Shown: positions 18,241-62,270, counted from the first letter of the stretch. The stretch: 64,000 bases of DNA from Deltaproteobacteria bacterium (GCA_015494395.1 WGBG01000180.1:10329-74328), one strand, 5' to 3'. Made by a program: numbers and translations. Notes: generated by a model from the sequence alone, not told the origin.

Positions 18241-18353
18241 TTTATTTAACCCTCCAAGAAGTTAATATTAATGTATAATTATCTTATTATAAATCATAAT
18301 CTTTTTAAAATGAACTTAAAAATCATTCTTATAATTAAAATTCAAAGTAAATC

Positions 18354-18577
18354 GTATCTATTCAGCGTGATAAATGGTCTTGTTTTGGAGTGACTATGAA
18401 GAATCTCGTAGTTTTTATTAGCGAAGCGTAGTCATAAAATCGCGTCTATACTGAGAGTGGAACCAGTGAGTTCCTCGATTTTGGCTTAAGCGAGCCCTGG
18501 AAAATAAGAAATTATTCACTTGAGTGGAAAAACAAGACCTCTTACCAACTTTCGTTATTTATATGCTGAACAATTAC
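18354..18577 (+). mobile_element. family A MITE, full length (A1)
   Basis: Ends are GTATCTATTCAGCG..GGTCTTGTTTT and AAAACAAGACC..GCTGAACAATTAC. Perfect 8-bp target duplication AGTAAATC (18346..18353 and 18578..18585). Confidence 0.85.
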
Positions 18578-18763
18578 AGTAAATCATGGTTAGCTTAACT
18601 GTGACATGATCAAGCGATCATTCATGTTCCCTTTAGATACGAGGTTTGGGGACAGTTCTATTTTTTATACTATCGGAAAATATACTGATGACTGAAATAA
18701 AAATAGCACGAACTAAAATTGATGAGGAAATGGAAGGTAGGGGTGAAGTAAGGTTAGTCTAGA

Positions 18764-18794
18764 TAAAAAAAGGGGGATATAAAATCCCCCTTTT
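18764..18794 (-). terminator. Rho-independent terminator after the PEP-CTERM protein operon
   Basis: AGGGGGAT (18771..18778) pairs with ATCCCCCT (18784..18791) around a 5-nt loop. On the minus strand a 7-T run follows. It lies 20 nt downstream of the stop at 18812. Confidence 0.7.
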
Positions 18795-18811
18795 AGTGTC
18801 ATGTTATGATG

Positions 18812-19390
18812 TTATGCTTTGCTTTTTTTAAATAATGCCAATCCTGCCAGACCAACGCCAAGCAGATAAATCGCTCCCGGAATTGGAACAGGCTGAGCGT
18901 CAACCTGAATCAGAAGGGCATCGAAACCGTACCAGGTTATGGCATGCTGTCCATATGCAGAGTCTAGTCCCAACGCATCGGCTACTGCTGTATTAAAACC
19001 TGGCAGCCAGCAACCACTTACTTTCATCGCAACCTGGAAGCGGTTGGACCCCTCAAGGATAACCCTTGGAGTATTGGGCATCCCTGCACGTCTTATGCCA
19101 AAGTCGTCTCCTACAGGTATTAACTCTATGCTATCCCATACTATGCCAAAGCCTGGATTGCCTTGAAGGATGAAATGGGGGTCGCTGTCCAGCAGGCTGG
19201 CCTGATCATCAAAGATTGCAATTTTGCCGTATATTTCATAGCCAGAATAGTTGATGTCAATGTTACCAGACTCTGTAGGCTCCCAAATGGTCCCTGGGCC
19301 CAATCCACCGCATGACGCAGATGCGCTGACAATCATTCCTGGAATGAGGAACAGCAGAGCTGACAGTACGGCTATACCTTTAATTTTCAT
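18812..19390 (-). CDS. secreted protein with PEP-CTERM-like (VPIPGA variant) C-terminal sorting signal
   Basis: Signal peptide. C-terminus is PVPIPGAIYLLGVGLAGLALFKKSKA (motif, TM helix, basic tail). AAGGAA RBS. Confidence 0.7.
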   Translation of the reverse strand: MKIKGIAVLSALLFLIPGMIVSASASCGGLGPGTIWEPTESGNIDINYSGYEIYGKIAIFDDQASLLDSDPHFILQGNPGFGIVWDSIELIPVGDDFGIRRAGMPNTPRVILEGSNRFQVAMKVSGCWLPGFNTAVADALGLDSAYGQHAITWYGFDALLIQVDAQPVPIPGAIYLLGVGLAGLALFKKSKA

Positions 19391-19422
19391 TTTTGTAATT
19401 CCTTAGTAAATCCATCTGATTC

Positions 19423-20010
19423 TTACTTGGTGGCTCTCTTCCGCGTTATGCCAAACAGCCCCAGAAGACCTGTTCCAAGCAGCCATACTGCGCCTGGGAT
19501 AGGAACGGCATTGCATGAATTTTTCAGGTGCCCTTCCGCGGCCAGATCACGGCCATGCAGCTCGAACACTTCGCTATTCTTTTCTCCCTGTACCATAAAA
19601 CTGTCATATGAGTCATACCATTTAACTTCTGCAGGACCATCAAACTGAAACGACGCTAGGGTTGTATCATCAGTAATGATGGCTGATCCCCATAATGCAG
19701 CCCCAGTGAATGCAACGAAAGGAGTACCTTCAGGTGTAACATCTTCATACATTGGCATTGGGAAAAGAGGGTCAGGAGGAGTTTCAGTCACATTGACTAT
19801 ATTCGCTCCTTCGTATGTAAACGCCAGCGTGTATGCGCCCAGATTCAGTGATTCTCCTGGATCTACACCCATAACAAAATCTACTGAATACTCATCAGCG
19901 CCGGGCATTATGTCAAACCATGAGCTTGCCAGTGCGCTGTTTACAATCATAAAAAGTAATGCTGTTAGAAGTAATGTTCCACTAAAAAATTTGTTAAATA
20001 AGCTTTTCAT
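19423..20010 (-). CDS. secreted protein with PEP-CTERM-like (VPIPGA variant) C-terminal sorting signal
   Basis: Signal peptide (..NSALA). C-terminus is AVPIPGAVWLLGTGLLGLFGITRKRATK. AAGGAGA RBS. Confidence 0.7.
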   Translation of the reverse strand: MKSLFNKFFSGTLLLTALLFMIVNSALASSWFDIMPGADEYSVDFVMGVDPGESLNLGAYTLAFTYEGANIVNVTETPPDPLFPMPMYEDVTPEGTPFVAFTGAALWGSAIITDDTTLASFQFDGPAEVKWYDSYDSFMVQGEKNSEVFELHGRDLAAEGHLKNSCNAVPIPGAVWLLGTGLLGLFGITRKRATK

Positions 20011-20037
20011 GTTAAGTCTCCTTGTTGGATGATATTT

Positions 20038-20805
20038 TTAGTTACAGCTTTGCAACCATTCGGTTTTAAGAATCAGGAAGTCACTCAGGTTGACTGTACC
20101 GTCACCATTTATGTCTCCTTCTTCATAAGTAACGCCTGATTGTAGCCAGTGAGTTTTGATTATCAGGAAGTCACTGAGGTTGACAGTACCGTCACCATTG
20201 ATATCAGCTTGCAGACTGCAAATCACTGCATAGCTTACACCGGAAAAAGTAACTGTAGAGTCCAGATCCTCTCCGGTTGTAGAGGCGAAGTTGACATAGT
20301 TTGGGTATGTCGTACGATCCTTGCCCAAAGATAAAGTTATGCCGAACAGGCTCTCTGGATCACTAACAGGCATGGTATTTGTAGCCCTTGTAAAAGTGAT
20401 TGTGCCAAGGAGAACCTTGTCGCCACTGACACCGGCTGTAGGATCACTGGTGTCAAGCTTTCCCCCGAGGATTACAACAGAATCGGTACTGATTTCAGGG
20501 TCTTTGTATGGATAATTGGTGCTGGAATCACCGAAATACCATACACTCTCATTTTTATCTGCAGATACTATAGATAACTCATCCGGGTTGAATGTTACCT
20601 TGATACATTGACTTACCACTGGCGTATCAAGTTGTGCGTAAATGTTCAGTATAAGTTGATCAGCATCATACGTACCTTCTGCAGAAACCAAGGTGGCGGC
20701 CGATGCAGTAGTTACGGTCCACGCCATCATTAAAGCGGGAATGATTATCGCTTTAAAAAATGACATTATGATTTTTTTTGTAACTTTTAATCCATTCACA
20801 TTCAT
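20038..20805 (-). CDS. secreted protein with two C-terminal dockerin-type repeats
   Basis: Signal peptide. Tandem DINGDGTVNLSDFLI(I/L)KT(H/E)WLQS calcium-binding dockerin repeats at the C-terminus. The N-terminal domain is possibly cohesin-like. Confidence 0.7.
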   Translation of the reverse strand: MNVNGLKVTKKIIMSFFKAIIIPALMMAWTVTTASAATLVSAEGTYDADQLILNIYAQLDTPVVSQCIKVTFNPDELSIVSADKNESVWYFGDSSTNYPYKDPEISTDSVVILGGKLDTSDPTAGVSGDKVLLGTITFTRATNTMPVSDPESLFGITLSLGKDRTTYPNYVNFASTTGEDLDSTVTFSGVSYAVICSLQADINGDGTVNLSDFLIIKTHWLQSGVTYEEGDINGDGTVNLSDFLILKTEWLQSCN

Positions 20806-20919
20806 ATGCCTCCTTATATTAAATTTGATAATTCCCTTTGTCCGTTACTCATGTACCTGAGTATAAACTGGAAACCTCCTTTCCTTAATCTTTAAATATT
20901 ACATTTTTTATCATATACA

Positions 20920-20934
20920 GCAAATAGTGTGCCG
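20920..20934 (-). promoter_or_regulatory. sigma-54 (-24/-12) promoter
   Basis: The minus strand reads tCGGCAC-ACTAT-TTGCTg, against the consensus TGGCAC-N5-TTGCW. It lies ~115 nt upstream of ATG 20805. Confidence 0.65.
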
Positions 20935-21128
20935 ATGAAATATCATAAAAAAACCTTAGTGAGACGTTTATAATATTGTTTTTTTGAAATATCTTTAGTT
21001 TTTATGAAAAAAAATACCCAGTATTTTTTTTCCATTTGCCATATCTTGGCCAGCGTCAATGCTACTTCTTTCTGTTTAGTTGTTGTTATTCCATGCAATA
21101 GGTCATTGTTTATTGAAGAGTACCCAAA

Positions 21129-22526
21129 TTAATTTCCAAATCGGCTGGCTAATAACTGAATATCCTGGTCATTAATTACCCAGTTATGGTCCAAATCGCA
21201 AGACGGATCATACCCATGGGCAGGCTGGGCATAAAACACCATGTTGGCCAGGTCGCTGCCATCAAAGTCCTGATCGTAGTCATGATCACCATTTGTCTCA
21301 ATGGTCCGAACAGCCCTGACAATCAGGTACGTCGTATCGAGTTTGTCAAAACTGCAAATTTGTCCCTTGTAAAGGTCAAGATAGAATGCTGTGGAATAAT
21401 CAATATTGTTATTTGTGTCTAATGAATATATCGTTGAAGATGTCCAAAACAATATAAAGTTGAAGGGGTCGGCCGGGTCATACCAGTAGGGTATGGAAAA
21501 TAGATCAGGGATTGCTGGATTAGTGGTGCTGTAATCAGCCAATGACTGCATCTCATTACGATTTGGTAGCCGCCAGTCAGTGTAGCCAGCTAAGTTTGAA
21601 GTCTCACAATACTCTAATGCTTGTTCCCAGGAATATGTTCCCCACTCCTCGGGTATGTCTTCACACTCACCTGTACTATTATTGTAGGTTTGGCCCATGT
21701 AGCACTTCTGCCACATCAGACTGGTTGAAACATCGGTAATTGTACCATCTCCATTATCAATAAACCTGCTCTGGGGTACAGGTTGTCCGCCGCGAACCGC
21801 CCTTACCCAGTGCCTGTCGGTCTTGAAATAGTTGTCATCAACACACCTGTTGCTGAAACATACATACCATGCCCAGGTAGGCTGATCTGCCGCAGTAGTG
21901 GCAGACCAATAGTTGTCTGATATAGTATTGGGAAAGAAATCTGCGTCCACCGCAGGGGCCTCATCTGATGCGCCAAGGTTTACAAGTGTGGAGAGTTCTT
22001 TGACTGTCGGCATGCGCCAGTCTGAAAAACCGCCGAAATTATCTTGGTTTAGCTTTGCAATAAAGGCTTCAGTGTCATCTTCTGCTGCAGGATCGGCACA
22101 CGCCCCTTGATCTCCGCCATTGGTATCTGGATTTGTATCACACCAGGTAAAGTTGTTGTCCTTGTCATGAATGGAACCGTCATCAGTTTTGACTTCCCAT
22201 ATGAGTCCGGTGACATTGTCCCGGGTCATTACCCAGCCATCTGCCAAAGTTGCATCGTCGGGAAGTTCAACTCCATTATAACCAAGTTTTGTGTAGGAAC
22301 GTAAACCATTATACTGGGCATCCTGTCCATGAAAGGCCTCCCCAGATGCAGGACACTCAATTTCACTTGAGTTGTTGTAACACTTGTTTTGGCCTGTATC
22401 TGGCCAGTAATTGAAGGCTGCCCCCGCGTTGTTTCCGGCAAATGCTGATGCAAAAAGGCCGGTCATGCAAATTGTACATAATAAGGTACATAATCGTAAG
22501 ATTAGCGATATGGTTATATGTCTCAT
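21129..22526 (-). CDS. secreted DUF1566 (Lcl C-terminal domain) repeat protein with dockerin-like C-terminus
   Basis: Two DUF1566-type blocks (DWRMPTVKELSTL, DWRLPNRNEMQSL). The C-terminus DLDHNWVINDQDIQLLASRFGN is dockerin-like. ATG 22526 is preferred because GGGAGGA lies 6 nt upstream; the ORF track starts at TTG 22532. Confidence 0.7.
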   Translation of the reverse strand: MRHITISLILRLCTLLCTICMTGLFASAFAGNNAGAAFNYWPDTGQNKCYNNSSEIECPASGEAFHGQDAQYNGLRSYTKLGYNGVELPDDATLADGWVMTRDNVTGLIWEVKTDDGSIHDKDNNFTWCDTNPDTNGGDQGACADPAAEDDTEAFIAKLNQDNFGGFSDWRMPTVKELSTLVNLGASDEAPAVDADFFPNTISDNYWSATTAADQPTWAWYVCFSNRCVDDNYFKTDRHWVRAVRGGQPVPQSRFIDNGDGTITDVSTSLMWQKCYMGQTYNNSTGECEDIPEEWGTYSWEQALEYCETSNLAGYTDWRLPNRNEMQSLADYSTTNPAIPDLFSIPYWYDPADPFNFILFWTSSTIYSLDTNNNIDYSTAFYLDLYKGQICSFDKLDTTYLIVRAVRTIETNGDHDYDQDFDGSDLANMVFYAQPAHGYDPSCDLDHNWVINDQDIQLLASRFGN

Positions 22527-22602
22527 CTTCAATCCTCCCTGAGCGCTTTTTAGCCGGATGGTTGGGCAATAACAGAAAAATAATACAACGGCAATACATC
22601 AA

Positions 22603-22617
22603 GCAATTAGTGTGCCG
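22603..22617 (-). promoter_or_regulatory. sigma-54 (-24/-12) promoter
   Basis: The minus strand reads CGGCAC-ACTAA-TTGCTt, differing at one position within the 15-bp core from the promoter at 20920..20934 (a second difference lies just downstream of TTGCT). It lies ~77 nt upstream of ATG 22526. Confidence 0.65.
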
Positions 22618-22762
22618 GATGCTAAAATGATAAAAATCACATTAAAAAAAGAAATTGAAGGGTGAGTTCCGTTAAAAAATGTTGAAGTGAAAAAAAAGTC
22701 TCATTGTTTGTGCAATTAATTTCCTATAGGATAATATGGCATACGGGGCATATTGCACAGTG

Positions 22763-25057
22763 TCATATTACGCATAGTTTTGCATATTTCAAGTGGAGGG
22801 TTTTAATCCCACCAACTTCAAACAGCACTTTAACCTTTTCTGTTGAGATTTTTTGTATAATTTTGCCACGTCCAAAGGTTGAATGTCTTACCCGGGTGCC
22901 AGGTGCAAGTGGTATATCCCCCTGTTGGTCCGGTTCAAGCCCGCCACTGCCCTGAGAGGAATTTTTAGAGGTGACTGCAGGAGTTTTAGTACATGCTTCA
23001 AAACCCTGTTCCGCGTGAGTATTCAAGGGATGGGATGCAGGGTCAATTTGATGCAGGAGGCTGGACGGGATTTCCTTCAGAAACCGGCATGGTTCAGCAG
23101 GCGCAAGGCCAGCACCTGCCATGTTGATAAACATGGGATAGCAGAGGCACAGATAGTCCTTGGCCCGGGTAGCTGCTACATAGAACAGCCTGCGTTCTTC
23201 TTCCAGTTCATCTATGCTGTTTTGTGATGCTGGGGATGGAAATCTGCCCTCTGCCATGGAAAGTATATAAACCGCCTTCCACTCAAGGCCCTTTGCCGAG
23301 TGAATGGTGGATAATACCACACGTTTCCTGTTCGAAGAGTCATCCGGGCCTTTTTCCGGGGGATCAAGAGCCAGCTCATCAAGCAACTCCTGAATGGTGC
23401 CATACTTGGATGACATTGCAATAAGCTGGCTTATGTCTTGCTGCCTTTTGGGAAAGTCGTCAATATAGTTTGCCTGAAGAAATGGCCTGTACCATTTTTC
23501 AGCCATGTCCAGGATTTTGCGGAATTTTCCATGGCTGGCAAGATCGTTAATTTCAAGGAGCAGTTTTCCAAGTTCTTGTAACTTTTCAGCCCACCGGGCC
23601 CGGCTTGGATACTTTGCCAGCAGTCTGTGGGGATCACTGCTTTTTACAACTTCCGCAAAGATTTTTCCTGCTGTCTTTATGCCAAGGTGGGGAATAAGGA
23701 GCAGAGCCCGTTCAAGGCTCAACCTGTCAAGGGGATTCTGGGAAATGCGCAGTACGGAAATGAAATCCTTTATGTGGGCTGATTCTATCAGTCTCATTCC
23801 GCCCCGTTTTTCAAAGGGTATTCCTCGGGCGTTAAGTTCTGTTTCAAGCGCAAAGGAGTGAAACCCTGCCCTGAACAGCGCTGCAATCTCGTGTGGCTCT
23901 GTGCCATTATCAATCAGGGAGGCAATGTGGTCTGCCACAAATGCCGCCTGTTCATTCTCGTCCCTTGCCTGGTACAGTGCAGGAGGAACGCCACCTTTCC
24001 TGTGGGCAGTGAGGCGCTTGGAGAATTTCTGGCTGGCATTTGCTATTATGGCGTTGGTGCAGTCAAGGTTGGGTTGGGTTGAACGGTAGTTTTTTTCAAG
24101 TTTTATTATGGTGGTGCCCGGGAACAGGTGAGGAAAATCAAGTATATTGTTGATTGTGGCTCCCCTGAATGAATATATTGACTGTGCATCATCCCCAACC
24201 ACCATGACATTTTCATGTCCGGTGGCCATAAGCCTGACTATTTCAGCCTGGGCAGGATTGGTGTCCTGGTACTCGTCCACCATGATGAACTGGTATCGTG
24301 CTCCCATTTCCTGCCGTACCCTGGGGTTGTCAAGCAGAATGTCACGCCACCTCAACAGCAGATCGTCATAGTCCATTAGACCATGCTTTTTTTTGTAGCG
24401 GGTGTACGCATGGTGCAGCATGGTAATGGACTTCATGTCCCTGGACAGGTGCTGGTAATAGCGTTGTATTATATCCTCAATGGGCTTTGATGCATTTTCA
24501 GCCTTGCTGATAATGGCTGCAAGTGTAGCCTTTCTCGGGAACCGCTTGCCTGGACCTGTAAATTTCATCTCCCTTGCAAGCAGGTGTAGCAGATCCCTGG
24601 TATCCCCTGCATCCATGATTGTAAAGTTTGGAGAATACCCTGCCAGGTGGGCATGGGTTCTGAGCATGCGGTGGGCAAAGGAATGAAATGTCCCGCCGGC
24701 TACCTGGCTGCATGCATGGCCGGTGATCTCTGCTGCACGCTGCAGCATGCCAGAGGCAGCCTTGCGGGTGAAGGTTAACAGAAGGATGGATTCAGGAGGG
24801 ATACCCTCCATGATAAGTCTGGCAACACGATAGACTAGGGTGCGGGTCTTGCCACTTCCTGCACCTGCAATTACCAGCAAAGGGCCTTCAAGGTGTGTAA
24901 CAGCCCGGTACTGTTCAGGGTTTAGATGTGACTTGAAATCTTGCTCGGAAATGAGGGGCATGGGCCTGGCAGATAACCTTCCTGTTGGCGTTGCGGATAT
25001 TGAATCGCTCTGTTTTGTCAAGTGCATTATTTTGATGAAGTTGCTGCACTTTGACAC
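22763..25057 (-). CDS. UvrD/PcrA/Rep-family ATP-dependent DNA helicase
   Basis: Walker A (AGAGSGKT), DEYQDT, and the other helicase superfamily 1 motifs. The start is uncertain (GTG 25057, ATG 25027 or ATG 24961). Confidence 0.9.
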   Translation of the reverse strand: MSKCSNFIKIMHLTKQSDSISATPTGRLSARPMPLISEQDFKSHLNPEQYRAVTHLEGPLLVIAGAGSGKTRTLVYRVARLIMEGIPPESILLLTFTRKAASGMLQRAAEITGHACSQVAGGTFHSFAHRMLRTHAHLAGYSPNFTIMDAGDTRDLLHLLAREMKFTGPGKRFPRKATLAAIISKAENASKPIEDIIQRYYQHLSRDMKSITMLHHAYTRYKKKHGLMDYDDLLLRWRDILLDNPRVRQEMGARYQFIMVDEYQDTNPAQAEIVRLMATGHENVMVVGDDAQSIYSFRGATINNILDFPHLFPGTTIIKLEKNYRSTQPNLDCTNAIIANASQKFSKRLTAHRKGGVPPALYQARDENEQAAFVADHIASLIDNGTEPHEIAALFRAGFHSFALETELNARGIPFEKRGGMRLIESAHIKDFISVLRISQNPLDRLSLERALLLIPHLGIKTAGKIFAEVVKSSDPHRLLAKYPSRARWAEKLQELGKLLLEINDLASHGKFRKILDMAEKWYRPFLQANYIDDFPKRQQDISQLIAMSSKYGTIQELLDELALDPPEKGPDDSSNRKRVVLSTIHSAKGLEWKAVYILSMAEGRFPSPASQNSIDELEEERRLFYVAATRAKDYLCLCYPMFINMAGAGLAPAEPCRFLKEIPSSLLHQIDPASHPLNTHAEQGFEACTKTPAVTSKNSSQGSGGLEPDQQGDIPLAPGTRVRHSTFGRGKIIQKISTEKVKVLFEVGGIKTLHLKYAKLCVI

Positions 25058-25089
25058 ACCAGCCCTTTTGTTTCAAGAAGGAATATCAG

Positions 25090-26112: not shown

Positions 26113-26131
26113 AATATCTTGCCTCAATCGG

Positions 26132-27973: not shown

Positions 27974-27979
27974 GATGTT

Positions 27980-28294
27980 TTACCCCTTTTGCAGTTGTGT
28001 CAGATACTCTTCCCATTCCATGGGAAGCAGATTTTTCTTCTTGTTGTTGCACTCCTTGCAGGCAGGGACCAGGTTTCCCCTGGTGCTCTTGCCGCCACGT
28101 GAAAGAGGAACCAGATGATCCATAGTTAGCATATCGCTACCCACCTGGCTATTGCAGTAATGGCAGACCCCTTTGGCGCATTTTTTTCTCCACCATGAGG
28201 TTTTCCTGAGCTGCCGCGCCCGCTGTTTTTCTCTTCTTATCTCTTCATCGTCAACAAAGGAGAAATTAAAAAATGTTTTTTGTGCCGTGGTCAT
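27980..28294 (-). CDS. small HNH endonuclease-domain protein
   Basis: 104 aa with CHYC..DHLVPLSRGG..NLVPACKECNNKK (HNH with two CxxC pairs). Confidence 0.8.
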   Translation of the reverse strand: MTTAQKTFFNFSFVDDEEIRREKQRARQLRKTSWWRKKCAKGVCHYCNSQVGSDMLTMDHLVPLSRGGKSTRGNLVPACKECNNKKKNLLPMEWEEYLTQLQKG

Positions 28295-28315
28295 TTCCTC
28301 CCTGGCTGGTGTTTT

Positions 28316-30700: not shown

Positions 30701-31050
30701 GTGGAAATAGCTCAAAGCTGAAAGCTCAAGGCTCAAAGTAAAAGAAGCCTATTTGCTTCCAGCTTCCGCTTTGGGTTAACTTTCATGTATCTATTCAGCG
30801 TGATAATTGGTCTTGTTTTGGAGTGACTTTGAAGAATTTCGTAGTTTTTCTTGGAGAAGCGCAGCCAGAAAATCGCGTCTGTCTGAGCGAGGCACGAGCG
30901 AGTTTCGCGATTTTGGCGTAGCGAGCCTTAGAAAAACAAGGAATTGTTCTCCGGAACGGAAAAACAAGACCAATTATCAACCTTATAATATCAATACGCT
31001 GAACAGTTACACTTTCATATCATGGGATGACAAACCCCATGTCATGAAAA
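30701..31050 (+). repeat. family C palindromic composite element (C1), interrupted by family A copy A2
   Basis: 30701..30786 matches the left ~90 bp of the intact copy at 49084..49205. 31011..31050 matches its right hairpin (..gatgacaaaccccatgtcatgaaa). Confidence 0.7.
30787..31010 (+). mobile_element. family A MITE, full length (A2)
   Basis: Canonical ends. Perfect 8-bp duplication ACTTTCAT (30779..30786 and 31011..31018), which is sequence belonging to family C. Confidence 0.9.
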
Positions 31051-31829: not shown

Positions 31830-31900
31830 GTATCTATGCACCGGGGCGGAAAAACAAGACCATTTACCAACCTTATAACACCCATACGCTGAACGGCTGC
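31830..31900 (+). mobile_element. family A MITE, internally deleted short form (A3)
   Basis: GTATCTA..ggcggAAAAACAAGACCATTTACCAACCTTATAA..ACGCTGAACGGCTGC. The flanks AAAAACAG / AAAAATAT match at 6 of 8. Confidence 0.6.
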
Positions 31901-39001: not shown

Positions 39002-39220
39002 GTAACTGTTCAGCGTACTTAAAAGGTTGGTAAATGCCCTTGTTTTCCGTTCCAGAGAACAATTTCTTGTTTTTCTAAGGCTTGCTTAAGCCAAAATCGC
39101 GAAACTCGCTCGTGCCTCCCTCAGACATACGCGATTTTATGGCTGCGCTTCGCCAAGAAAAACTACGAAATTGTTCAAAGTCACTCCAAAATAAGACCAT
39201 TTACCACGCAGAATAGATAC
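39002..39220 (-). mobile_element. family A MITE, full length (A4)
   Basis: Reverse orientation: GTAACTGTTCAGCG..GGTAAATGCCCTTGTTTT...AAAATAAGACCATTTACCACGCAGAATAGATAC. The flanking 8-mers match at only 5 of 8. Confidence 0.8.
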
Positions 39221-41249: not shown

Positions 41250-41457
41250 CCTGGATTGAGCGATTGCCGGATTTGCTACAGATCCGCGAAAGGGGAATTC
41301 CCATAATAGTTGGCTATATGGGAATTCCCCTGACAAAGGAGATGCAGTAAATACGGCAATCCCGAAGGGTTTCAAAATTGGGAAGCTATTATTGACATAA
41401 CTCTTTTTAATATCGGTGAAAAAACAATTTTCCATATTTTGAAACGCTCAATCTAGG
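41250..41457 (+). mobile_element. family B MITE, long variant (B3)
   Basis: TIR is CCTGGATTGAGCG / CGCTCAATCTAGG. 5-bp duplication TTAAA (41245..41249 and 41458..41462). It carries ~70 extra bp, including the hairpin GGGGAATTCCCA-N15-TGGGAATTCCCC (41292..41330). Confidence 0.8.
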
Positions 41458-41468: not shown

Positions 41469-41547
41469 TTAACTGTTAAGCGTACTAATAATAAAGGTTG
41501 GTAAATGGTCTTGTTTTTACGCTCCGGTTACCACGCTGAATAGATAC
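41469..41547 (-). mobile_element. family A MITE, short hairpin form (A5)
   Basis: ttAACTGTTAAGCG..GGTAAATGGTCTTGTTTTT..CCACGCTGAATAGATAC. The 8-bp flanks AAAATGCC / AAAATACC match at 7 of 8. Confidence 0.7.
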
Positions 41548-41734: not shown

Positions 41735-42502
41735 TTGAAGGCAATAATATTAAGCGCAGGGCAGGGGAAACGCCTTTTGCCCATGACTGCTGACATGCCC
41801 AAGTGTATGCTTGATGTTGGCAGTGGTACTATTCTTGAGTGGCAGATCAATACGCTTCTTGGTATGGGCGTTAATGAAATAGTAATCGTCACCGGTTACG
41901 GGGCATCCAAGGTGGACAGGCTGATATCAGAAACCTATGCTGATAATGGAGTAAGGACTCTTTATAATCCTCATTATGCCACTTCTGACAACCTTGTGAG
42001 CTGCTGGTGGGCAAGCAGTGAGATGGATAAGGATTTCTTGCTGCTTAATGGAGACACGCTGTTTGAGCCTGCTGTGGCCAGTACCCTTATGAACTGTCCG
42101 CCTTCTTCAATAACCATGGCAATAAATGTCAAGGATAACTATGACAGCGATGACATGAAGGTTGTGGTTGATAAGGGGCGGCTTTTACATGTTGGCAAGC
42201 AGCTGCCGGTTGAAAGTGTTGACGGGGAATCAATTGGTTTTATCCGTTTTCTGGGAGAGGGGCCAGATATTTTCAAAAAGGCACTTGCCGAAGCTGTTGA
42301 GAACCCTTCGAGTAAAGGAAGATGGTACCTGTCTGTAATTGACAAGATTGCAGGAGAAATGCCAATAAGTACATGTCCAATCACCGGTTATTCATGGTGT
42401 GAAGTGGATTATCCTGAGGACCTTGATAATGCACGCAGGATGATTGCATCGCTTTCTGTTGCCAAAAAAACTGAGGGCAAGGGCATTTGCCAACCTTATT
42501 AA
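41735..42502 (+). CDS. NTP-transferase domain protein (LicC/IPCT-like cytidylyltransferase candidate)
   Basis: TTG start with GGAG 8 nt upstream. N-terminus is (M)KAIILSAGQGKRLLPMT. The last codons and the stop lie in a family A end fragment. Confidence 0.7.
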   Translation: MKAIILSAGQGKRLLPMTADMPKCMLDVGSGTILEWQINTLLGMGVNEIVIVTGYGASKVDRLISETYADNGVRTLYNPHYATSDNLVSCWWASSEMDKDFLLLNGDTLFEPAVASTLMNCPPSSITMAINVKDNYDSDDMKVVVDKGRLLHVGKQLPVESVDGESIGFIRFLGEGPDIFKKALAEAVENPSSKGRWYLSVIDKIAGEMPISTCPITGYSWCEVDYPEDLDNARRMIASLSVAKKTEGKGICQPY

Positions 42503-42524
42503 GGTGAATGCGCTTAACAGTTAC
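42478..42524 (+). repeat. solo right-end fragment of family A (A11)
   Basis: caagggcatttgccaaccttattaaggtgaatgcgcttaacagttac aligns to the right ends of A2, A3 and A5 (caagaccatttaccaacctt..acgct(g/t)aacagtta). Confidence 0.6.
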
Positions 42525-49081: not shown

Positions 49082-49083
49082 GC

Positions 49084-49205
49084 GTGAAAATAGCTCAAGG
49101 CTCAAAGTTGAAAGTCAAAGAAACCATGTTGGTTTTCAGCTTCCGACTTTGAGCTTTCAGATAACTTTCATGTCAGGGGGTGACAAACCCCATGTCATGA
49201 AAGTT
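49084..49205 (+). repeat. family C palindromic composite element, intact reference copy (C2)
   Basis: It contains two hairpin modules (gctcaaggctcaaagttgaaag..cttccgactttgagctttcag and tttcatgtcagggggtgacaaaccccatgtcatgaaa). It fills the gap between two convergent genes. Confidence 0.7.
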
Positions 49206-51432: not shown

Positions 51433-51571
51433 CCTGAATTGAGCGTTTCAAAAGTTTGAAGAAATGATTTTATACGATATTAAAAGGACTTAAATTTATC
51501 ATACTCTTAAACTTTTGAAACCCTTCGGGATTGCCGGATCTGCAGCAAATCCGACAATCGCTAAATCCAGG
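51433..51571 (-). mobile_element. family B MITE, short form (B4)
   Basis: Reverse orientation with ends CCTGAATTGAGCG / CGCTAAATCCAGG. 5-bp duplication ACTGT (51428..51432 and 51572..51576). Confidence 0.8.
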
Positions 51572-52364: not shown

Positions 52365-52452
52365 TATTGGTGGAAGAATAGGTTACAGTATCTTAAGTTT
52401 TGACTGATCCCACAGTTTTATTAAACAACTATAAATCACTGGAGGATTCAAT

Positions 52453-52797
52453 ATGTCTGACTGTCTGTTTTGCAAGATGGTTTCAGGTGAGATCAAGCCT
52501 GATGTTGTTTATGAAGATGATGATGTCCTGGCATTTCGTGACATAAATCCCCAGGGGCCAACCCATGTGCTGGTTATTCCAAAGGAGCATATTGCCACCA
52601 TTAACGACCTTCAGGAGCATCATGCCGAACTTATGGGAAAGATCTATCTCACTGCTGCCAAGGTCGCAGCACAGGAGGGTATTGCAGAAAAAGGCTACCG
52701 CACGGTTATGAACTGCAACAGGGATGGAGGCCAGGAGGTGTATCATATCCACCTTCACGTAATTGGCGGCAGGGGCATGACCTGGCCTCCAGGCTAA
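52453..52797 (+). CDS. HIT-family (histidine triad) nucleotide-binding protein
   Basis: 114 aa with the HIHLHVIGG triad. GGAGG RBS. Confidence 0.9.
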   Translation: MSDCLFCKMVSGEIKPDVVYEDDDVLAFRDINPQGPTHVLVIPKEHIATINDLQEHHAELMGKIYLTAAKVAAQEGIAEKGYRTVMNCNRDGGQEVYHIHLHVIGGRGMTWPPG

Positions 52798-53022
52798 ACT
52801 TTCGTGGTAGGGGCGCTGTCACTCCCCTGATATGAAAGTTAGCTCTAAGCTCAAAGTCGGAAGCTGAAAGCAGACAGGGTTTTTTTTGTAACTGTTCAGC
52901 GCATTTATTCAACGAGGTTGGTAAATGGTCTTGTTTTTCCGTTCCCAGGACCATTTACCACGCTATATAGATACGTTTTTTTACTTTGAGCCTTGAGCTT
53001 TCAGCTTTGAGCTATTTTAGGA
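52797..53022 (-). repeat. family C palindromic composite element (C3), interrupted by family A short copy A6
   Basis: 52797..52887 and 52975..53022 together align to the reverse complement of C2. The element begins at the HIT stop codon. Confidence 0.7.
52888..52974 (-). mobile_element. family A MITE, short hairpin form (A6)
   Basis: GTAACTGTTCAGCG..GGTAAATGGTCTTGTTTTTCCGTTCCCAGGACCATTTACCACGCTATATAGATAC. It is flanked by G+T-run repeats (gtttttttt / gttttttt), consistent with an 8-bp duplication. Confidence 0.75.
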
Positions 53023-53036
53023 TAAAAAATTCAGGC

Positions 53037-53849: not shown

Positions 53850-53900
53850 ATACCTGAGCATGCCCGTAATTTTGGTAATTTGAAGGGAGTTTAATCTTTT

Positions 53901-55331
53901 ATGAACTATGAAGCTGTTATAGGTCTTGAGGTGCATGTCCAGCTCAAGACCAGTAGCAAGATATTCTGTTCCTGTGTAAACAAATTCGGGTCTTCACCCA
54001 ATACCCAGACCTGTCCTGTATGTCTTGGCATGCCTGGTGTGCTTCCGGTGCTTAACCGCAGGGTGGTTGAGTATGCCCTGAGGATGGGCATGGCCACAAA
54101 CTGCAAGATTCCAAAATACAGTCAGCTTGCAAGAAAGCACTACTTCTATCCTGATCTTCCAAAGGGCTATCAGATTTCACAGTATGAACTTCCCCTGGTT
54201 GAACACGGCTGGGTTGATATAGATGTTGAGGGCAAGACCAGGCGTATTGGGATTACGAGGATTCATATTGAAGATGATGCAGGCAAACTTGTTCATGATG
54301 AGTCACGGCCTGTAAGTTACGTTGATCTTAACAGGACAGGGACCCCTCTTATAGAGATAGTAAGTGAGCCGGACATAAGAAGCCCTGAGGAGGCTGCTGC
54401 CTATGTAAGGAAGATACGGCAGCTTGTGCGTTATCTGGGAATCAGTGACGGCAACATGGAGGAGGGAAGCCTCAGGTGTGATGCAAATATCTCCCTTCGT
54501 CCAGAGGGGCAGAAAGAGTTTGGCACCAAGTCCGAGTTAAAGAACATGAACTCCTTCAGGAACGTGCAGAAGGCACTTGAATATGAAATCAGGCGTCAGA
54601 CTGCGCTGCTGCTTGACGGGCAGGAGATAGTGCAGGAGACCAGACTCTGGGATGCCGGTAAAGGTGTTACCCACTCCATGAGAGGCAAGGAGGAGGCACA
54701 CGACTACCGCTACTTCCCGGATCCTGATCTTGTCCCCATTGAGATAAGTGACCAGTGGATGGAGGAGATAAGGGCAGATTTGCCCGAGCTTCCTGATGAG
54801 AAGCGCAGGCGCTTTATGGAACAGTACGGGCTTCCTGAATACGATGCCTCGGTTCTGACGGTTTCAAGGGAGACAGGGGATTATTTTGAAGAGGCGGTAA
54901 GGCTCTTTGATAATCCAAAAAGCGTGTCAAACTGGATAATGGTGGAGCTCATGAAGCTACTTAAACAGACCGATGTCTCCATTGAACAGTGCAATGTTAC
55001 CCCGGCATATCTGGCTGAGATACTAGCCCTTGTGGACAAGGGGACAATCAGTGCGCAGATGGGCAAGGAGGTGTTGCAGGACTGTTTCGGGACCGGCAAG
55101 TCCCCTGCGTCAATAGTTGAGGAAAAGGGGCTTTCCCAGGTCAGTGACGAGTCAGAGCTTGAGGCAGTTGTTGCAAAGGTGATGGAGGCAAATCCCAAGG
55201 AAGTTGAGCTGTACCGTGGTGGCAAGAAAAAGGTTCTTAGTTTCCTCATGGGACAGGTTATGAGGGAGACGAGGGGCAAGGCAAATCCCAAAAAGGTGAA
55301 TGAGATTTTCAGAAAAATGCTTGAGGGATAA
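53901..55331 (+). CDS. gatB: Asp-tRNA(Asn)/Glu-tRNA(Gln) amidotransferase subunit B
   Basis: [15 protein letters not shown].., [15 protein letters not shown], and a full-length 476 aa. Confidence 0.95.
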
Positions 55332-55332
55332 T

Positions 55333-55552
55333 TATACAGCGTATTAACAGTAATGAGGGTTCGTAAATGGTCTTGTTTTTCCGTTCCGGAGAACAATTTC
55401 TTGTTTTTCTAAGGCTTGCTTAAGCCAAAATCGCGAAACTCGCTCGTGCCTCGCTCAGACAGACGCGATTTTATGGCTCCGCTTCGCCAAGAAAAACTAC
55501 GAAATTCTTCAGAGTCACTCCAAAACAAGACCATTTACTGTGCTGATCATTC
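55333..55552 (-). mobile_element. family A MITE, full length with degraded outer ends (A7)
   Basis: It starts 1-2 nt after the gatB stop. The interior is near-identical to A4 and A9. The outer repeats diverge (atacagcgt.., ..tgtgctgatcattc). Confidence 0.75.
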
Positions 55553-55614
55553 ATTACGTTTTAGAGATGCTTGAGGCATAGGTCAGGGATACAGGTCAGG
55601 GAGTCTGTTAAACA

Positions 55615-57565: not shown

Positions 57566-57596
57566 TGAGCCTGCGGTTGGTTTCCTTTATTATTTA

Positions 57597-57823
57597 ATAT
57601 CTATTAAGCGTGGTAAATGGTCTTGTTTTGGAGTGACTTTGAACAATTTCGTAGTTTTTCTTGGCGAAGCGAAGCCACAAAAATCGCGTCTGTTTGAGCG
57701 AGGCACGAGCGAGTTTCGCGATTTTGGCGTAGTAAGCCTTAGAAAAACAAGAAATTGTTCACCGGAACGGAAAAACAAGGCCATTTTCCAACCTTTATTC
57801 ACATCAGTACGCTGAATAGTGAC
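57597..57823 (+). mobile_element. family A MITE, full length (A8)
   Basis: ataTCTATTAAGCGTGGTAAATGGTCTTGTTTT...AAAACAAGGCCATTTTCCAACC..ACGCTGAATAGTGAC. No clear flanking duplication. Confidence 0.8.
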
Positions 57824-57846
57824 GTGAAAGTTTAGTTGAGGACCCA

Positions 57847-58869
57847 TTGCTTAAAGGTTTACGGAAAGTTTTCAGAAAAAATCTGGGCATCGACCTGGGT
57901 ACTGCCAATACCCTTATCTATCTTGAGGATGTGGGGATTGTGTTTAACGAGCCTACTGCAGTTGCAAGGTCTGATGCTGGAAAACTGCTTGCTGTTGGAA
58001 GTCAGGCGTGCAGTTATCTTGGGCGGACCCCTGAGGGCATTGAGGCATTAAGGCCAATGGCCCGCGGTGTTATCAGTGATTATGATGCTGTATCCTCCTT
58101 TCTTCATGCCATACTTGATGAGGTAAGAGACAGGCAGGCGCTGTTATCACCGGATGTTGTGGTGTGTGTGCCCTCCAACATAACCCGGACTGAGCAGAGG
58201 ACTGTCCTTGAGGCAGTCATGGAGGCTGATGTCCACAGGGCATGGCTCATGGAGGAGGTTATGGCAGCAGCAGTTGGTGCAGGTGTTGCAGGCCCTGATG
58301 AGCCGCCGGCAATGGTGCTTGACATGGGCGGTGGGACTTCAGAGGCTGCAATAATAAGTGACATGGCATATCTCGCCTGTGAGACCCTGCGTGTTGCAGG
58401 TGATGATATGAATGAACAGGTGGCCCGGTACATGAAGCGGCAAAGGGGGCTTGTCATGAGTATTTCCGGTGCTGAAAAGCTTAAATGGGATGCCGGATGC
58501 GTGCCCGGCTGGAAAGGCGGCCCGCTTACTGCCCAGGCAGGAGGAAAGGATATTGTGACCGGTCTTCCCACTACCTGTGAAGTTACCTCAACCGAGCTTG
58601 CCCCTGTGTTTGAAGAGATAGTGGAAAATATCGTTGATCTTGTGAAGGAAGTTATGCGCCAGGTTGATGTTGAAGTGTTGCATCATGTGGTCTCAAAGGG
58701 TGCCCTGCTTACCGGAGGAGGTTCCATGCTGCGGGGCCTGGCATCGTATCTTTCAGCTCGTTGCGGTATCAGGTTCCATCCTGCAGAAAACCCTCTTGAA
58801 ACGGTTATAGCCGGAGCAGGAACTGTGGTTCAGGATATTCCTGCGTGGCGTTCCGTATTTGTAAATTAA
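57847..58869 (+). CDS. mreB: MreB/Mbl-family actin-like protein
   Basis: GIDLGTANTLIY, LRPMARGVISDYD and DMGGGTSEAA. TTG start with GAGGA 4 nt upstream. No mreCD follows. Confidence 0.8.
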   Translation: MLKGLRKVFRKNLGIDLGTANTLIYLEDVGIVFNEPTAVARSDAGKLLAVGSQACSYLGRTPEGIEALRPMARGVISDYDAVSSFLHAILDEVRDRQALLSPDVVVCVPSNITRTEQRTVLEAVMEADVHRAWLMEEVMAAAVGAGVAGPDEPPAMVLDMGGGTSEAAIISDMAYLACETLRVAGDDMNEQVARYMKRQRGLVMSISGAEKLKWDAGCVPGWKGGPLTAQAGGKDIVTGLPTTCEVTSTELAPVFEEIVENIVDLVKEVMRQVDVEVLHHVVSKGALLTGGGSMLRGLASYLSARCGIRFHPAENPLETVIAGAGTVVQDIPAWRSVFVN

Positions 58870-59087
58870 AAACTATTCAGCGTGGTAAATGGTCTTGTTT
58901 TTCCGTTCCGATGAACAATTTCTTGTTTTTCTAAGGCTTGCTCCACCAAAATCGCGAAACTCGCTCGGGCCTCGCTCAGACAGACGCGATTTTTTTTGGC
59001 TCCGCTTCGCCAAGAAAAACTACGAAATTATTCAAAGTCACTCCAAAACAAGACCATTTACCAACTTTAATTCAAGGCGATAGTGGA
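58870..59087. mobile_element. family A MITE, chimeric copy with core inverted relative to its ends (A9)
   Basis: The left end is the spacer-less type (CTATTCAGCGTGGTAAATGG). The right end is the spacer type (CCATTTACCAACTTTAATTC..). The interior reads in the orientation seen in the minus-strand copies. Confidence 0.7.
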
Positions 59088-59948
59088 ATGAAATACCTCC
59101 CGGAGTTTTCACCTGATGTTTCACCAGAACATCAGCACATTATCACCACTGCTGTAAATGCAGCTCTTAAGGCAGGCAGTGTACTCATGGAACTTTACTC
59201 TCAGCCTCATGACATCAAGTACAAGGGTGATATTGACCTTGTAACAGAGGCGGATGTAGCCTCGGAAAAGGCTGTTAAGGAGATATTGAGCACCGAGAGC
59301 AGTGCGCCAATAATGGCAGAGGAGTCTGCCACTGATATTTCCTGCCCTCAGGGAGCGGTCTGGATTATTGACCCCCTTGACGGCACCACCAACTATGCCC
59401 ACGGCTTCCCATTTTTCTGCGTCTCTGTCTGTTACTATCTTGGCAGTCCGGTTGATGGCATGGAGGCAGGCCCGCTTGCAGGTGCTGTGTACTGCCCGGT
59501 GCTTGATGAGATGTTTGCTGCCTTAAGGGGTCATGGGGCATGGCTTAACTCCGTCATTATCAGAACCACGTCTGAACATAATCTTGGCAGGGGGCTTATG
59601 GCAACCGGGTTTCCGTACACCATCAGGCAGGAATCACAGTGGGTCATTGATGCCCTCAAGCGGGTAATTGTAAAGGCGCAGGGCATCAGGCGGGCAGGGG
59701 CGGCAGCCCTTGACCTTGCATGGCTTGCAGCCGGCAGGGTTGATGGTTTCTGGGAGGCCGGGCTAAAGCCCTGGGATACTGCTGCAGCCCAGCTCCTTGT
59801 AACAGAGGCAGGTGGAACGGTTACAGATTTTGCAGGAGGGGAGTATAATCCCTTTATGAAGGAGATATTGGCATCTAATGGTCCGCTTCATTCATCTCTT
59901 GTGGAGATATTGTCAGATTTCAGCGGAAAAAAGGGCAGCACACTCTGA
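59088..59948 (+). CDS. inositol monophosphatase-family protein (SuhB-like)
   Basis: WIIDPLDGTTNYAHG and WDTAAA motifs. ATG 59088 is preferred because the upstream extension to 58938 is MITE sequence. Confidence 0.85.
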   Translation: MKYLPEFSPDVSPEHQHIITTAVNAALKAGSVLMELYSQPHDIKYKGDIDLVTEADVASEKAVKEILSTESSAPIMAEESATDISCPQGAVWIIDPLDGTTNYAHGFPFFCVSVCYYLGSPVDGMEAGPLAGAVYCPVLDEMFAALRGHGAWLNSVIIRTTSEHNLGRGLMATGFPYTIRQESQWVIDALKRVIVKAQGIRRAGAAALDLAWLAAGRVDGFWEAGLKPWDTAAAQLLVTEAGGTVTDFAGGEYNPFMKEILASNGPLHSSLVEILSDFSGKKGSTL

Positions 59949-59951
59949 GTT

Positions 59952-60431
59952 ATGACATCATGGCGATATAAAAAATGCCCGGTTTGCGGGGCTGAGATCG
60001 AGGTCTATGCAAATCCTGTACCCACTGTAGATATTATCATCGAAGTCAAGGGGAGTGGTATTGTCCTCATAGAGAGAAAAAATGCGCCTCATGGCTGGGC
60101 GATTCCAGGCGGGTTTGTAGATTACGGTGAAAGTGTGGAAACTGCGGCAGTGCGGGAGGCAAAGGAGGAGACCGGGCTTGATGTAATGCTTAAAGGTCTG
60201 CTTGGTGTCTATTCAAATCCCCAAAGAGACTGCCGCGTTCATACTGTCAGCACAGTGTTTGTTGCAGAGGCCCAGGGAAATCCCAATGCAGGAGATGACG
60301 CAGCAAATGCAAGGTGTTTTTCAAGTGATAACCTGCCGAATGAGCTTGCCTTTGATCATGGGCTGATTCTGGCACACTACATAAAATACCTTGAGGGCGC
60401 CAGGTGTCTTTGTACTGTCCAGCATGGGTAA
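59952..60431 (+). CDS. NUDIX hydrolase with N-terminal zinc-ribbon
   Basis: Nudix box [25 protein letters not shown]-terminal CPVCG. Confidence 0.8.
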
Positions 60432-60461
60432 CGCAGCGGCCTGAAATTAAGTTTTATCAAT

Positions 60462-61949
60462 ATGGGAAATAAGAGGATAACCAGAAAAGACCTGGATGTG
60501 GTCATATCACGTCTTTTCAGTAATGAAAAGGGCGAGATACCCTGCATGTCAGATACTGTCCGCAGGCTCATGGCACTGGATCCGGACAGTGATGTCTCCA
60601 TGCAGGAACTTGCCGAGGTTATTCTTGAGGATTACGGGCTTATCAACAAGGTTCTCATAGTTGTAAATTCTTCTTATTACAGGCGGTTAAATACAGAGAT
60701 CACCACTGTTACCCAGGCGGTAGTAATGCTTGGCTTTAACACTGTGAGAAGTATTGCGGTGGACATGGCCATGCTTGATCTGCTTGCAGATAACAGCAAC
60801 CCCATTGCACTTAATGTGCTGGCCGAGACATTCTTTGCAGCAAATTTTGCCCAGATCATCCAGTCTGAATTAAAAATCGGCTCTTCAGAGGCAATTTTTG
60901 TTGCCTCTCTTTACAGGCCAATCGCACGCATTGTAACGGTCCTTTATGACCCTGAACTTTATTCCACCTTGGTCGAAATGGAAAATGCCTCCAACTCGTC
61001 TGAAAGACAGATAGCCAGGGATTTTTTCAGGGAAACCGGCTACAGGCTTGCAGAACTCTGGAGTGTACCGGCAAGCCTCTCCGGTTTCATGGAGGGATGC
61101 AAGCAGCATGCATCTTCCGTGGAGCCGAAATATCTTGAACTTGTTAGGGCCGCAGCACGCGTGAGCTCCATGCTGTTTGGAGGTGGAGATGGAGAGCAGA
61201 TAGCAGCACTTCTGAAGAAGTTTCAGAAGAATTTTAATCTTGACAGGGATGTTGTTCAAAGAAGCCTTGAAAAGGCCGTGTCGCTTACCTCGGACAAGAG
61301 AACTGAATTTTGTAAATTGCTCAAAAATGTCAGTGTGGGCGGGGTATTAAGCCAGTCTGAGACATCTCCCCAGATTCAGCAAGATCAGGAAGAACATGAC
61401 CAAATCGTCCAGGATGAGGAGAGGGGAAAAGAATCAGATGATCGAGATGAACTATTTCTTGATCTCCTTAATCAGATTACCAGTGCCATACTTGAGAATA
61501 AGTTTACTTTGGACCAGGTACTGCTTTTGGCTGTGGAGGTGATACGCCGCGGTTTTGATCCTCTCAATATCGCTCTCTGTCTGTTTACTCCTGACAGAAA
61601 AAGGCTCGTAGTGCGATATTCGCTTGGAAAACAGGCGGGAATAATTAAAAAATATCTTGATGTTCAGGATCCTTTGAATAATCCACCTTTAAAAGCGGCA
61701 TTTCAGAAGGACTGCGAGGTGATGGGTACATGGAGGCAGCTTCTTCCTGAACTGGTACCTAATGATGCAGGAGGGCTTTTGACCAACCAGGTGTGTGCAA
61801 GTCCTGTTCAAGTCAAAGGCAGGCCCGTTGGTTGTATTCTGTGCGACTTCAGTTCCTCAAGAAAAATCAATGGAAAAGAGCTTAAGAAAATAGCCCAGGT
61901 AAGAAAGCTTGTGGTGCTTTCTGCCATGCAGAGGGTGTCTGGGCGTTAA
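60462..61949 (+). CDS. HDOD-domain signalling protein with C-terminal GAF-like domain
   Basis: HDOD pattern (ELAEVILEDYGLINKVLIVVNSSYY..ITTVTQAVVMLGFNTVRSIA). GAF-like C-terminus. Confidence 0.7.
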   Translation: MGNKRITRKDLDVVISRLFSNEKGEIPCMSDTVRRLMALDPDSDVSMQELAEVILEDYGLINKVLIVVNSSYYRRLNTEITTVTQAVVMLGFNTVRSIAVDMAMLDLLADNSNPIALNVLAETFFAANFAQIIQSELKIGSSEAIFVASLYRPIARIVTVLYDPELYSTLVEMENASNSSERQIARDFFRETGYRLAELWSVPASLSGFMEGCKQHASSVEPKYLELVRAAARVSSMLFGGGDGEQIAALLKKFQKNFNLDRDVVQRSLEKAVSLTSDKRTEFCKLLKNVSVGGVLSQSETSPQIQQDQEEHDQIVQDEERGKESDDRDELFLDLLNQITSAILENKFTLDQVLLLAVEVIRRGFDPLNIALCLFTPDRKRLVVRYSLGKQAGIIKKYLDVQDPLNNPPLKAAFQKDCEVMGTWRQLLPELVPNDAGGLLTNQVCASPVQVKGRPVGCILCDFSSSRKINGKELKKIAQVRKLVVLSAMQRVSGR

Positions 61950-61958
61950 GCACTGCTT

Positions 61959-62156
61959 GTAACTGTTCATCGGGCTTATGTTAATAAAGGTTGGTAAATG
62001 GTCTTGTTTTTCTAAGGCTTGCTACGCCAAAATCGCAAAACTCGCTGGTCCCTTGCTCAGACAGACGCGATTTTTGTGGCTGCGCTTCGCCAAAAAAACT
62101 ACGAAATTGTTCAAAGTCACTCCAAAACAAGACCATTTACCACGCTGAATAGATAC
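61959..62156 (-). mobile_element. family A MITE (A10), with ~28-bp internal deletion
   Basis: Canonical ends. Perfect 8-bp duplication CACTGCTT (61951..61958 and 62157..62164). It lacks ccgttccggagaacaatttcttgttttt, a segment bounded by the direct repeat cttgttttt in other copies. Confidence 0.9.
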
Positions 62157-62270
62157 CACTGCTTTAACCTACTCCTGACATTATAGCCTGCCGCATTAGT
62201 GGAATGGCCGTAAGTCAGAAACCGGAGAACAAGCAGGTTCGTAAAGTTTATTCATACGGAAACAAATATT

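Follow-up and report, generated by a model that had tools for sequence, protein, structure and literature searches.

Introduction

[quoted passage not shown] These elements are small and non-coding, are bounded by terminal inverted repeats (TIRs), occur in multiple copies that are mostly intergenic and can form hairpins; it is presumed that related insertion sequences (ISs) mobilise them in trans. In this study, we analyzed a repeat with the same features, named family A, in a stretch of 64,000 nucleotides from a Deltaproteobacteria bacterium (GCA_015494395.1 WGBG01000180.1:10329-74328; this whole stretch is called the window). Family A has no sequence similarity to the four families mentioned above. 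The parents of these families differ (IS982 for MITECca01 and possibly IS5 for MITEPsy1), and the target-site duplication (TSD) of MITEPsy1 is 4 nt, whereas that of family A is 8 bp. The TSD of Correia is TA. MITECca01 is present in 169 copies, which occupy 3.5% of the genome (PMC9769881), and MITEPsy1 was shown to transpose (PMC3189936). Family A is shorter than the ~600 bp limit used for bacterial MITEs, is non-coding, and has TIRs, TSDs of fixed length, dispersed copies and sites that are occupied or empty among relatives.

The REP/BIME and IS200/IS605-derived palindromes do not duplicate their targets, and consist of palindromic units of 20-40 bp or of subterminal hairpins without TIRs. 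The TIRs and 8-bp TSDs of family A rule out an element of this kind. Elements of the IS66 family begin with GTAA and make 8-bp duplications, and this was used as the lead for the present assignment. The transposition mechanism of the ISBst12 group of this family is poorly characterised. The canonical elements with three open reading frames (ORFs), IS66/IS679, also have ends that begin with GTAA and 8-bp direct repeats, as family A does; their ends start with GTAAGCG, and their inverted repeats (IRs) are 20-30 bp in length (PMC11946415). The ISBst12-group elements are 1.5-1.7 kb in length and encode one transposase of 450-485 amino acids with the DDE_Tnp_IS66 domain, whereas family A is 226 bp in length and has no ORF.

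Here we report that family A is a new MITE family, which is present in high copy number throughout the intergenic DNA of uncultured hydrothermal-vent Deltaproteobacteria. It is otherwise an ordinary selfish element, and nothing in it departs from known biology.

Target-site duplications and empty sites

The boundaries of the element were determined from a multiple alignment, and the flanks were scored for 48 full-length copies from the window and from related contigs of metagenome-assembled genomes (MAGs). As the control, left and right flanks taken from different copies were paired (2256 cross-copy pairs). Perfect 8-bp TSDs were detected in 27 of the 48 copies, and five more copies matched at 7/8. 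In the control, no pair matched at 8/8 and 0.09% matched at 7/8. The only duplication length that fitted was 8 bp. The TSDs were rich in A+T (69%, against a background of 52%) and had no strict consensus. An earlier note on this DNA, made from the sequence alone, had proposed a mobile non-autonomous element with 8-bp TSDs. These counts confirm the proposal, and the formal alignment shows that the flanking 8-mers are duplicated beyond chance.

Perfect TSDs were also found for short derivatives, for example GCCTGATT in L023. Furthermore, copies have inserted into each other. In L057, the tip of a 43-bp mini copy is the insertion site of a full copy, and three ATTCTGC repeats were observed there, which is exactly the remainder expected from two successive 8-bp duplications. 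In L015, one copy was found inside the inner repeat of another, with the TSD AAATGGTC. Among 65 copies, 59 lay outside long ORFs.

Relatives of the window were then compared at the sites of individual copies, which are referred to by the numbers in Table 1. The relative L063 (GCA_054035595.1) shares ~70% amino-acid identity in MreB with the window, and the gene order gatB-mtnA-GAF-mreB-...-HDOD is kept. At the sites of copies 55333, 57597, 58870 and 61959, L063 has gaps of 45, 11, 40 and 6 bp, respectively, and no family-A match was found in L063 with the nhmmer profile. Thus, these four orthologous sites are empty in the relative. In a closer relative, L061 (96% identical), copies 57597 and 58870 are present at the same sites. 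The orthologue of copy 55333 in L061 has lost 123 bp internally; therefore, short derivatives arise in place. Copy 52888 is the sole copy absent from L061, and it lies in a block of ~226 bp that is missing there. Since this block is a larger composite insertion, L061 was uninformative as a clean empty site at the resolution of the 8-mer.

These observations show that the copies are insertions, that they nest into each other and that they lose internal segments in place. We also considered that recombination or segmental duplication might have dispersed the copies, or that they might be independent remnants of a full-length IS deleted in place. Internal deletions do happen in place, and copy 55333 has an atypical flanking duplication of ~25 bp. 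However, the 226-bp structure and its internal junctions are common to 49 copies, the exact 8-bp TSDs have a different sequence at each site, and no flanking sequence is common to the copies. Such an origin is extremely improbable, and is effectively refuted by the TSD statistics.

Ends of family A and of ISBst12-group elements

The two terminal repeats of family A, GTATCTATTCAGCG and GTAACTGTTCAGCG, agree at 12/14 positions, and positions 4 and 7 consistently distinguish the two ends. ISBst12-group elements such as ISDge4 and the element of pHTA426 (annotated as 'IS66-like element ISGka4 family transposase') resemble family A in their 14-bp GTAACTRYTCAGC ends, in having GTAA at one end and GTAT at the other, and in making 8-bp duplications. 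The pHTA426 element of Geobacillus kaustophilus has the ends GTAACTATTCAGCC / GTATCTATTCAGCC and the TSD AACTCGTC on both sides. Its ends match those of family A at 12/14 and 13/14, and, as in family A, one of them begins with GTAA and the other with GTAT. ISDge4 of Deinococcus geothermalis, a member of the single-ORF ISBst12 group, has the TIRs GTGACTACTCAGCA / GTAACTGCTCAGCA and 8-bp direct repeats (PMC12898284), and these TIRs match at 10/14 and 12/14. The chance that a random 14-mer matches at 12/14 or more is ~3e-6. Thus, the resemblance of the ends is not due to chance.

The search was extended by tblastn of the pHTA426 transposase against PLSDB, in which 191 records were obtained and six were sampled for their ends. 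Ends of the GT(A/T)ACTRYYYAG type were found in five of them, three with a perfect 8-bp TSD. The terminal repeats and TSDs were GTAACTGCCCAGGT and TGCATATC in the Bradyrhizobium element, GTAACTACTTAGGT and TTGAAAAG in the Planococcus element, and GTTACTGCCCAGGCT and CTTCATTC in the Acaryochloris element. The B. thuringiensis element (GTAACTACTCAGCTT at both ends) and the D. wulumuqiensis element (GTAACTGCTCAGCA / GTAACTACTCAGCA) had differing flanks without an 8-bp TSD. For the Pseudanabaena element, no clear IR was seen in a quick search. The GTAACTRYTCAGC-type motif was present in six of the seven plasmid-borne group members sampled. All three reference transposases scanned contained DDE_Tnp_IS66 together with DUF6444, and usually zf-IS66.

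Judged by their sequence, the ends GTAACTGTTCAGCG / GTATCTATTCAGCG of family A are of the ISBst12-group (IS66-family) type, and family A was assigned to this group by these ends and the 8-bp TSD length. The earlier note had not recognised the termini as those of any named IS family. This is corrected here: at 12-13/14 positions they match the ends of a named group, which also makes 8-bp duplications. We consider it likely that family A is a non-coding 226-bp MITE with ISBst12-group ends that is mobilised by a transposase of this group. In this mechanism, an ISBst12-like DDE transposase (DDE_Tnp_IS66) encoded elsewhere in the genome would bind both ends. It would recognise the outer repeats and, probably, the subterminal GGTAAATGGTCTTGTTTT repeats, and would then insert the element into AT-rich DNA, mostly between genes, by staggered cleavage of the target with an offset of 8 bp. 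We infer the presence and identity of this transposase, as well as any role of the inner repeats or of the hairpin.

Search for a transposase and an autonomous partner

No transposase domain of Pfam was detected in 40 ORFs of the window, the Pfam domains listed for genes between 49.2 and 62 kb include none, and NCBIfam scans of 10 window ORFs gave no transposase. Ten window ORFs had no match to any family. As the earlier note had stated, the window thus contains no transposase, in agreement with the tblastn search described below.

A longer repeat bounded by family-A ends (GTAACTGTTCAGCG ... CGCTGAATAGATAC) was not found in the sequence from element-bearing genomes. When additional outer IRs and repeats of 350 bp or longer were searched for in ~0.43 Mb of this sequence, only short derivatives and orthologous regions were obtained. 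JGI metagenome contigs were scanned twice, first with a left-end pattern excluding the MITE interior and then with a general one, and no match was obtained. Scans of IMG/VR gave no match apart from two chance matches in phage coding sequence. To find a transposase overlapping the ends, 5.8 billion proteins were searched with concatenated six-frame peptides of the element. The one match was a host ORF, the called N-terminus of which extends into a copy.

Several results weigh against mobilisation by an ISBst12-group transposase. The family was assigned from the 14-bp termini and the TSD length only. The ends of family A read GTAACTG and GTATCTA, which is the ISBst12-group variant, and do not match GTAAGCG of canonical IS66. 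Family A has a second, asymmetrically spaced subterminal inverted repeat and arms that are 79% alike, and the pHTA426 element has no counterpart of the long palindromic interior or of the asymmetric inner repeats. In addition, tblastn of the Geobacillus ISBst12-group transposase against the window and the sequence of element-bearing genomes (~0.43 Mb) gave a best E of 4, and no autonomous element was found in the same ~0.43 Mb, which derives from fragmented MAGs. In fragmented MAGs, multi-copy IS elements are usually not assembled, and the contig names of the host MAGs indicate low k-mer coverage. Therefore, the absence of a partner is weak evidence.

The same absence is compatible with mobilisation by another family that makes 8-bp TSDs (IS6/IS26, ISL3, IS256, IS1595 or ISAs1), because this TSD length is not unique to IS66. 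However, the termini of family A fit the ISBst12-group ends at 12-13/14, with the end asymmetry included. The other 8-bp families presumably begin with GG... or CAGGG, and the IS26 IR GGCACTGTTGCAAA would match family A at only ~7/14. IS6, ISL3, IS256, IS1595 and ISAs1 were rejected as the parent on terminal sequence, and we regard a parent among them as quite unlikely.

Anatomy, folding and a possible host role

The consensus of 49 copies is 226 bp in length. It consists of the outer repeat GTATCTATTCAGCG, TG, the inner repeat GTAAATGGTCTTGTTTT, an interior of ~140 bp, the inner repeat AAAACAAGACCATTTACC, a spacer of ~20 nt and the outer repeat CGCTGAACAGTTAC. Thus, at one end the outer IR is followed after 1-2 nt by the inner repeat, and at the other end a spacer separates the two. 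The alignments are in agreement with the outer and inner inverted repeats that the earlier note had placed at both ends. It had also described a spacer of 14-19 bp at one end only. The asymmetry is real and the length is approximately right; however, the consensus has a spacer of 20 nt and copy 30787 one of 18 nt, the length varies by indels, and in copy 58870 the spacer lies on the opposite arm. The ends of copy 58870 are flipped relative to its interior, and it looks as if the center was inverted by recombination between the arms.

The predicted center, AAAATCGCG-N28-CGCGATTTT, is exact in copy 30787. When the 19-nt spacer insertion was set aside, the arms were 79% identical across 90 aligned positions. 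The consensus folds as one long hairpin, with -50.9 kcal/mol (z -8.65) as DNA and -87.2 kcal/mol (z -9.09) as RNA, and none of 200 shuffled sequences folded as well. The capacity to form a hairpin, which had been predicted, is therefore clear. Column identity to the consensus was 91-96% in every segment except the indel-rich spacer (75%). The subfamilies are distinguished chiefly by the spacer and by changes that mirror each other in the two inner repeats: the variants are GGTAAATGG/CCATTTACC, GATAATTGG/CCAATTATC and AGTGAATGG/CCATTCACT, with double changes at three base pairs. The inner repeats and their mirrored changes may reflect co-evolving second binding sites, a required hairpin or homogenised arms of the palindrome.

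No conserved ORF was detected in the element. Each of the six frames is interrupted by stops in the consensus, and frame shifts result from indels at variable sites; a small protein (GGAG-N7-TTG/ATG followed by ~38 codons) was ruled out by these stops and indels in the consensus and in the copies. The ORFs of 86-90 amino acids that lie wholly within family-A copies in the public annotation are fortuitous products of gene calling. Annotation artefacts of this repeat were seen at L061 8200-8472, L065 9709-9969 and L077 5383-7485, and the called N-terminus of one 700-amino-acid protein crosses a copy. With Rfam 15, the window gave no covariance-model match at the gathering score. The sole match at E <= 1 was astro_FSE with 13.7 bits, which is a chance match. 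A known RNA family was thus rejected, and the consensus does not correspond to a known structured RNA.

A role in RNA processing or stability has been proposed for the Correia and ERIC elements. Family A, besides being mobile, could likewise be a selected or host-exploited RNA or DNA hairpin, for example an operon-internal signal for RNA processing or stability. The very stable fold (z about -9), the high column identity outside the spacer and the mirror-image changes with double changes at three pairs are consistent with this idea. Furthermore, copies occur in very short intra-operon spacers and should be co-transcribed; a host RNA role is conceivable because the copies sit inside operons. 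In contrast, no orientation bias was found relative to co-directional flanking genes (12 antisense and 8 sense), terminator-like sites were not enriched (9 against 7.0 expected), and no promoter enrichment was found at the copies. There was no Rfam match, and the copies decay, with degraded termini and deleted internal segments. The mirrored changes would be equally expected from the binding sites of one co-evolving transposase or from homogenisation of the arms by repair. A host role of this kind is rather unlikely in our view. Selection on the whole ~190-bp palindrome would explain its conservation. Such selection might act because a hairpin or cruciform is needed for ISBst12-group transposition, or because the host exploits the RNA hairpin in operons, and we give it only a small probability.

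If the palindrome is indeed under selection, family A would offer a natural minimal substrate for IS66-family transposition, and no ISBst12-group MITE would have been described before it. No paper joining ISBst12 with MITE, or MITE with IS66 and 8-bp, was found in the searchable literature, with ISfinder outside the search, and no MITE derived from IS66 was found in the bacterial MITE literature consulted by full-text search. Family A connects the ISBst12 group of the IS66 family with a MITE, and for this group no other was found in the searchable literature. The 226-bp minimal substrate and the 43-bp mini derivative could be used to study end recognition by these little-studied transposases. 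Copies at intra-operon sites (spacers of 6-45 bp), some of which supply stop codons, may affect the expression of neighboring genes. Repeats of this type also break up MAG assemblies and give rise to spurious ORF calls.

Distribution beyond the window

Family A is a statistically solid case of a high-copy MITE in uncultured vent Deltaproteobacteria. The profile search of the window and related MAG contigs gave 89 non-redundant copies, of which 49 were full length. An exact 20-mer from the core matched at least 58 stretches in GTDB representative genomes. Nearly all of the matches listed were in JALWJV01 (Deltaproteobacteria bacterium M17_metabat1_scaf2bin.112), and the others were in WFRQ01 and JALVQQ01. 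The window itself matches part of WFZQ01000130.1 (GCA_015489495.1) at 99.85% identity, and its proteins are also present in ENA and Logan assemblies named REYS20-1. No similarity to family A was found by blastn against PLSDB plasmids and INPHARED phages.

The full-length copies in the window had a mean pairwise identity of 84.5%, and three of the seven kept a perfect TSD. In JALWJV01, the mean pairwise identity was 90%, and some pairs were up to 99% identical. This suggests recent activity of family A in JALWJV01, and the copies in the window genome are older.

Copies in the window

The window contains 11 family-A loci: seven full-length copies, three internally deleted copies and one solo end (Table 1). 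A BLASTN search with copy 18354 (18354-18577) as the query and an nhmmer profile made from the seven full-length copies recovered all of the listed loci except the solo end, and none extra. The solo end was detected by pattern search only. Together, the three methods gave the 11 loci of one shared sequence that the earlier note had listed, with essentially the same coordinates. The outer-IR pattern GTAWCTRTTCAGCG (one mismatch or less) had 11 occurrences in the window, compared with an expectation of 0.04. The full-length copies are ~198-232 bp in length and the short derivatives are 71-87 bp. The three perfect duplications and the fourth pair matching at 7/8, which had been noted previously, were all found again. 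All seven copies described as full length were also found; however, copy 55333 has badly degraded termini and lacks an 8-bp TSD.

All 11 copies sit between long ORFs, and two of them complete the gene upstream by providing its last codons or its stop codon. The NTP-transferase ORF at 41735-42502 takes its last ~8 codons and its stop codon from the solo end, and the stop codon of gatB falls within the degenerate terminus of copy 55333. The flanks of copy 55333 (55306-55332 and 55553-55582) are an imperfect duplication of ~25 bp of the 3' end of gatB (TTTTCAGAAAAATGCTTGAGGGATAA / GTTTTAGAG-ATGCTTGAGGCATAG), which is also present in L061. No family-A copy was found in the first 18 kb of the window, an exopolysaccharide / PEP-CTERM locus.

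Table 1. Family-A loci in the window and landmarks of copy 30787
Feature	Position	Strand	Description
Copy 18354, full length	18354-18577	+	Most diverged (~80% to the others); perfect 8-bp TSD AGTAAATC at 18346-18353 and 18578-18585
Copy 30787, full length	30787-31010	+	Reference of the GATAATTGG/CCAATTATC subfamily; perfect TSD ACTTTCAT at 30779-30786 and 31011-31018
Outer IRs of copy 30787	30787-30800, 30997-31010		
Inner repeats of copy 30787	30802-30819, 30961-30978		
Central palindrome arms of copy 30787	30869-30877, 30906-30914		AAAATCGCG and CGCGATTTT
Spacer of copy 30787	30979-30996		18 nt
Copy 31830, short derivative	31830-31900	+	71 bp, internal deletion; begins 7 nt past the lptB stop codon; flanks 5/8
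Copy 39002, full length	39002-39220	-	Between convergent genes; flanks 5/8
Copy 41469, short derivative	41469-41547	-	79 bp; TSD 7/8, GGTATTTT/GGCATTTT (element orientation); adjoins the family-B MITE at 41250-41457
Solo spacer-bearing end	42478-42524	+	Contains part of an inner repeat, the spacer and the outer IR CGCTTAACAGTTAC
Copy 52888, short derivative	52888-52974	-	87 bp; flanks 7/8 (A-rich)
Copy 55333, full length	55329-55552	-	Degenerate termini; directly 3' of gatB; ~25-bp imperfect flanking duplication, no 8-bp TSD
Copy 57597, full length	57597-57823	+	Between a GAF-domain gene and an mreB-like gene; no TSD remaining
Copy 58870, full length	58856-59087	-	Directly past the mreB-like stop codon; spacer on the opposite arm
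Copy 61959	61959-62156	-	28-bp internal deletion; perfect TSD CACTGCTT at 61951-61958 and 62157-62164

Other repeats and neighboring features

A second MITE family, named B, was also observed. It has the TIRs CCTAGATTGAGCG / CGCTCAATCTAGG and is 139 or ~208 bp in length, with seven TIR matches against 1.09 expected. Family B was found in the window at 13613-13751, 41250-41457 and 51433-51571, with a partial copy at 17624, and also in L014 (~5844-6051) and in L042. It is inserted at the same position within two family-A copies, with the 5-bp duplication TCGTA.

A palindromic repeat of ~42 bp (AACTTTCAT..GGGG.GACA..CCCC..ATGAAAGTT) occurs in the window at 31011-31050, ~49160-49205 and ~52798-52840. 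One of these repeats includes the TSD ACTTTCAT of copy 30787; this copy was therefore inserted into it. A short repeat, AGCTCAAAGCTGAAAGCTCAAGGCTCAAAGT, is present at 30708-30740 and, as the reverse complement, at 52980-53012. At 52.8-53.0 kb, related inverted sequences lie on both sides of the short copy 52888. A stand-alone HNH endonuclease ORF of 104 amino acids was found at 27980-28294, between a glmS-like gene and a response-regulator gene.

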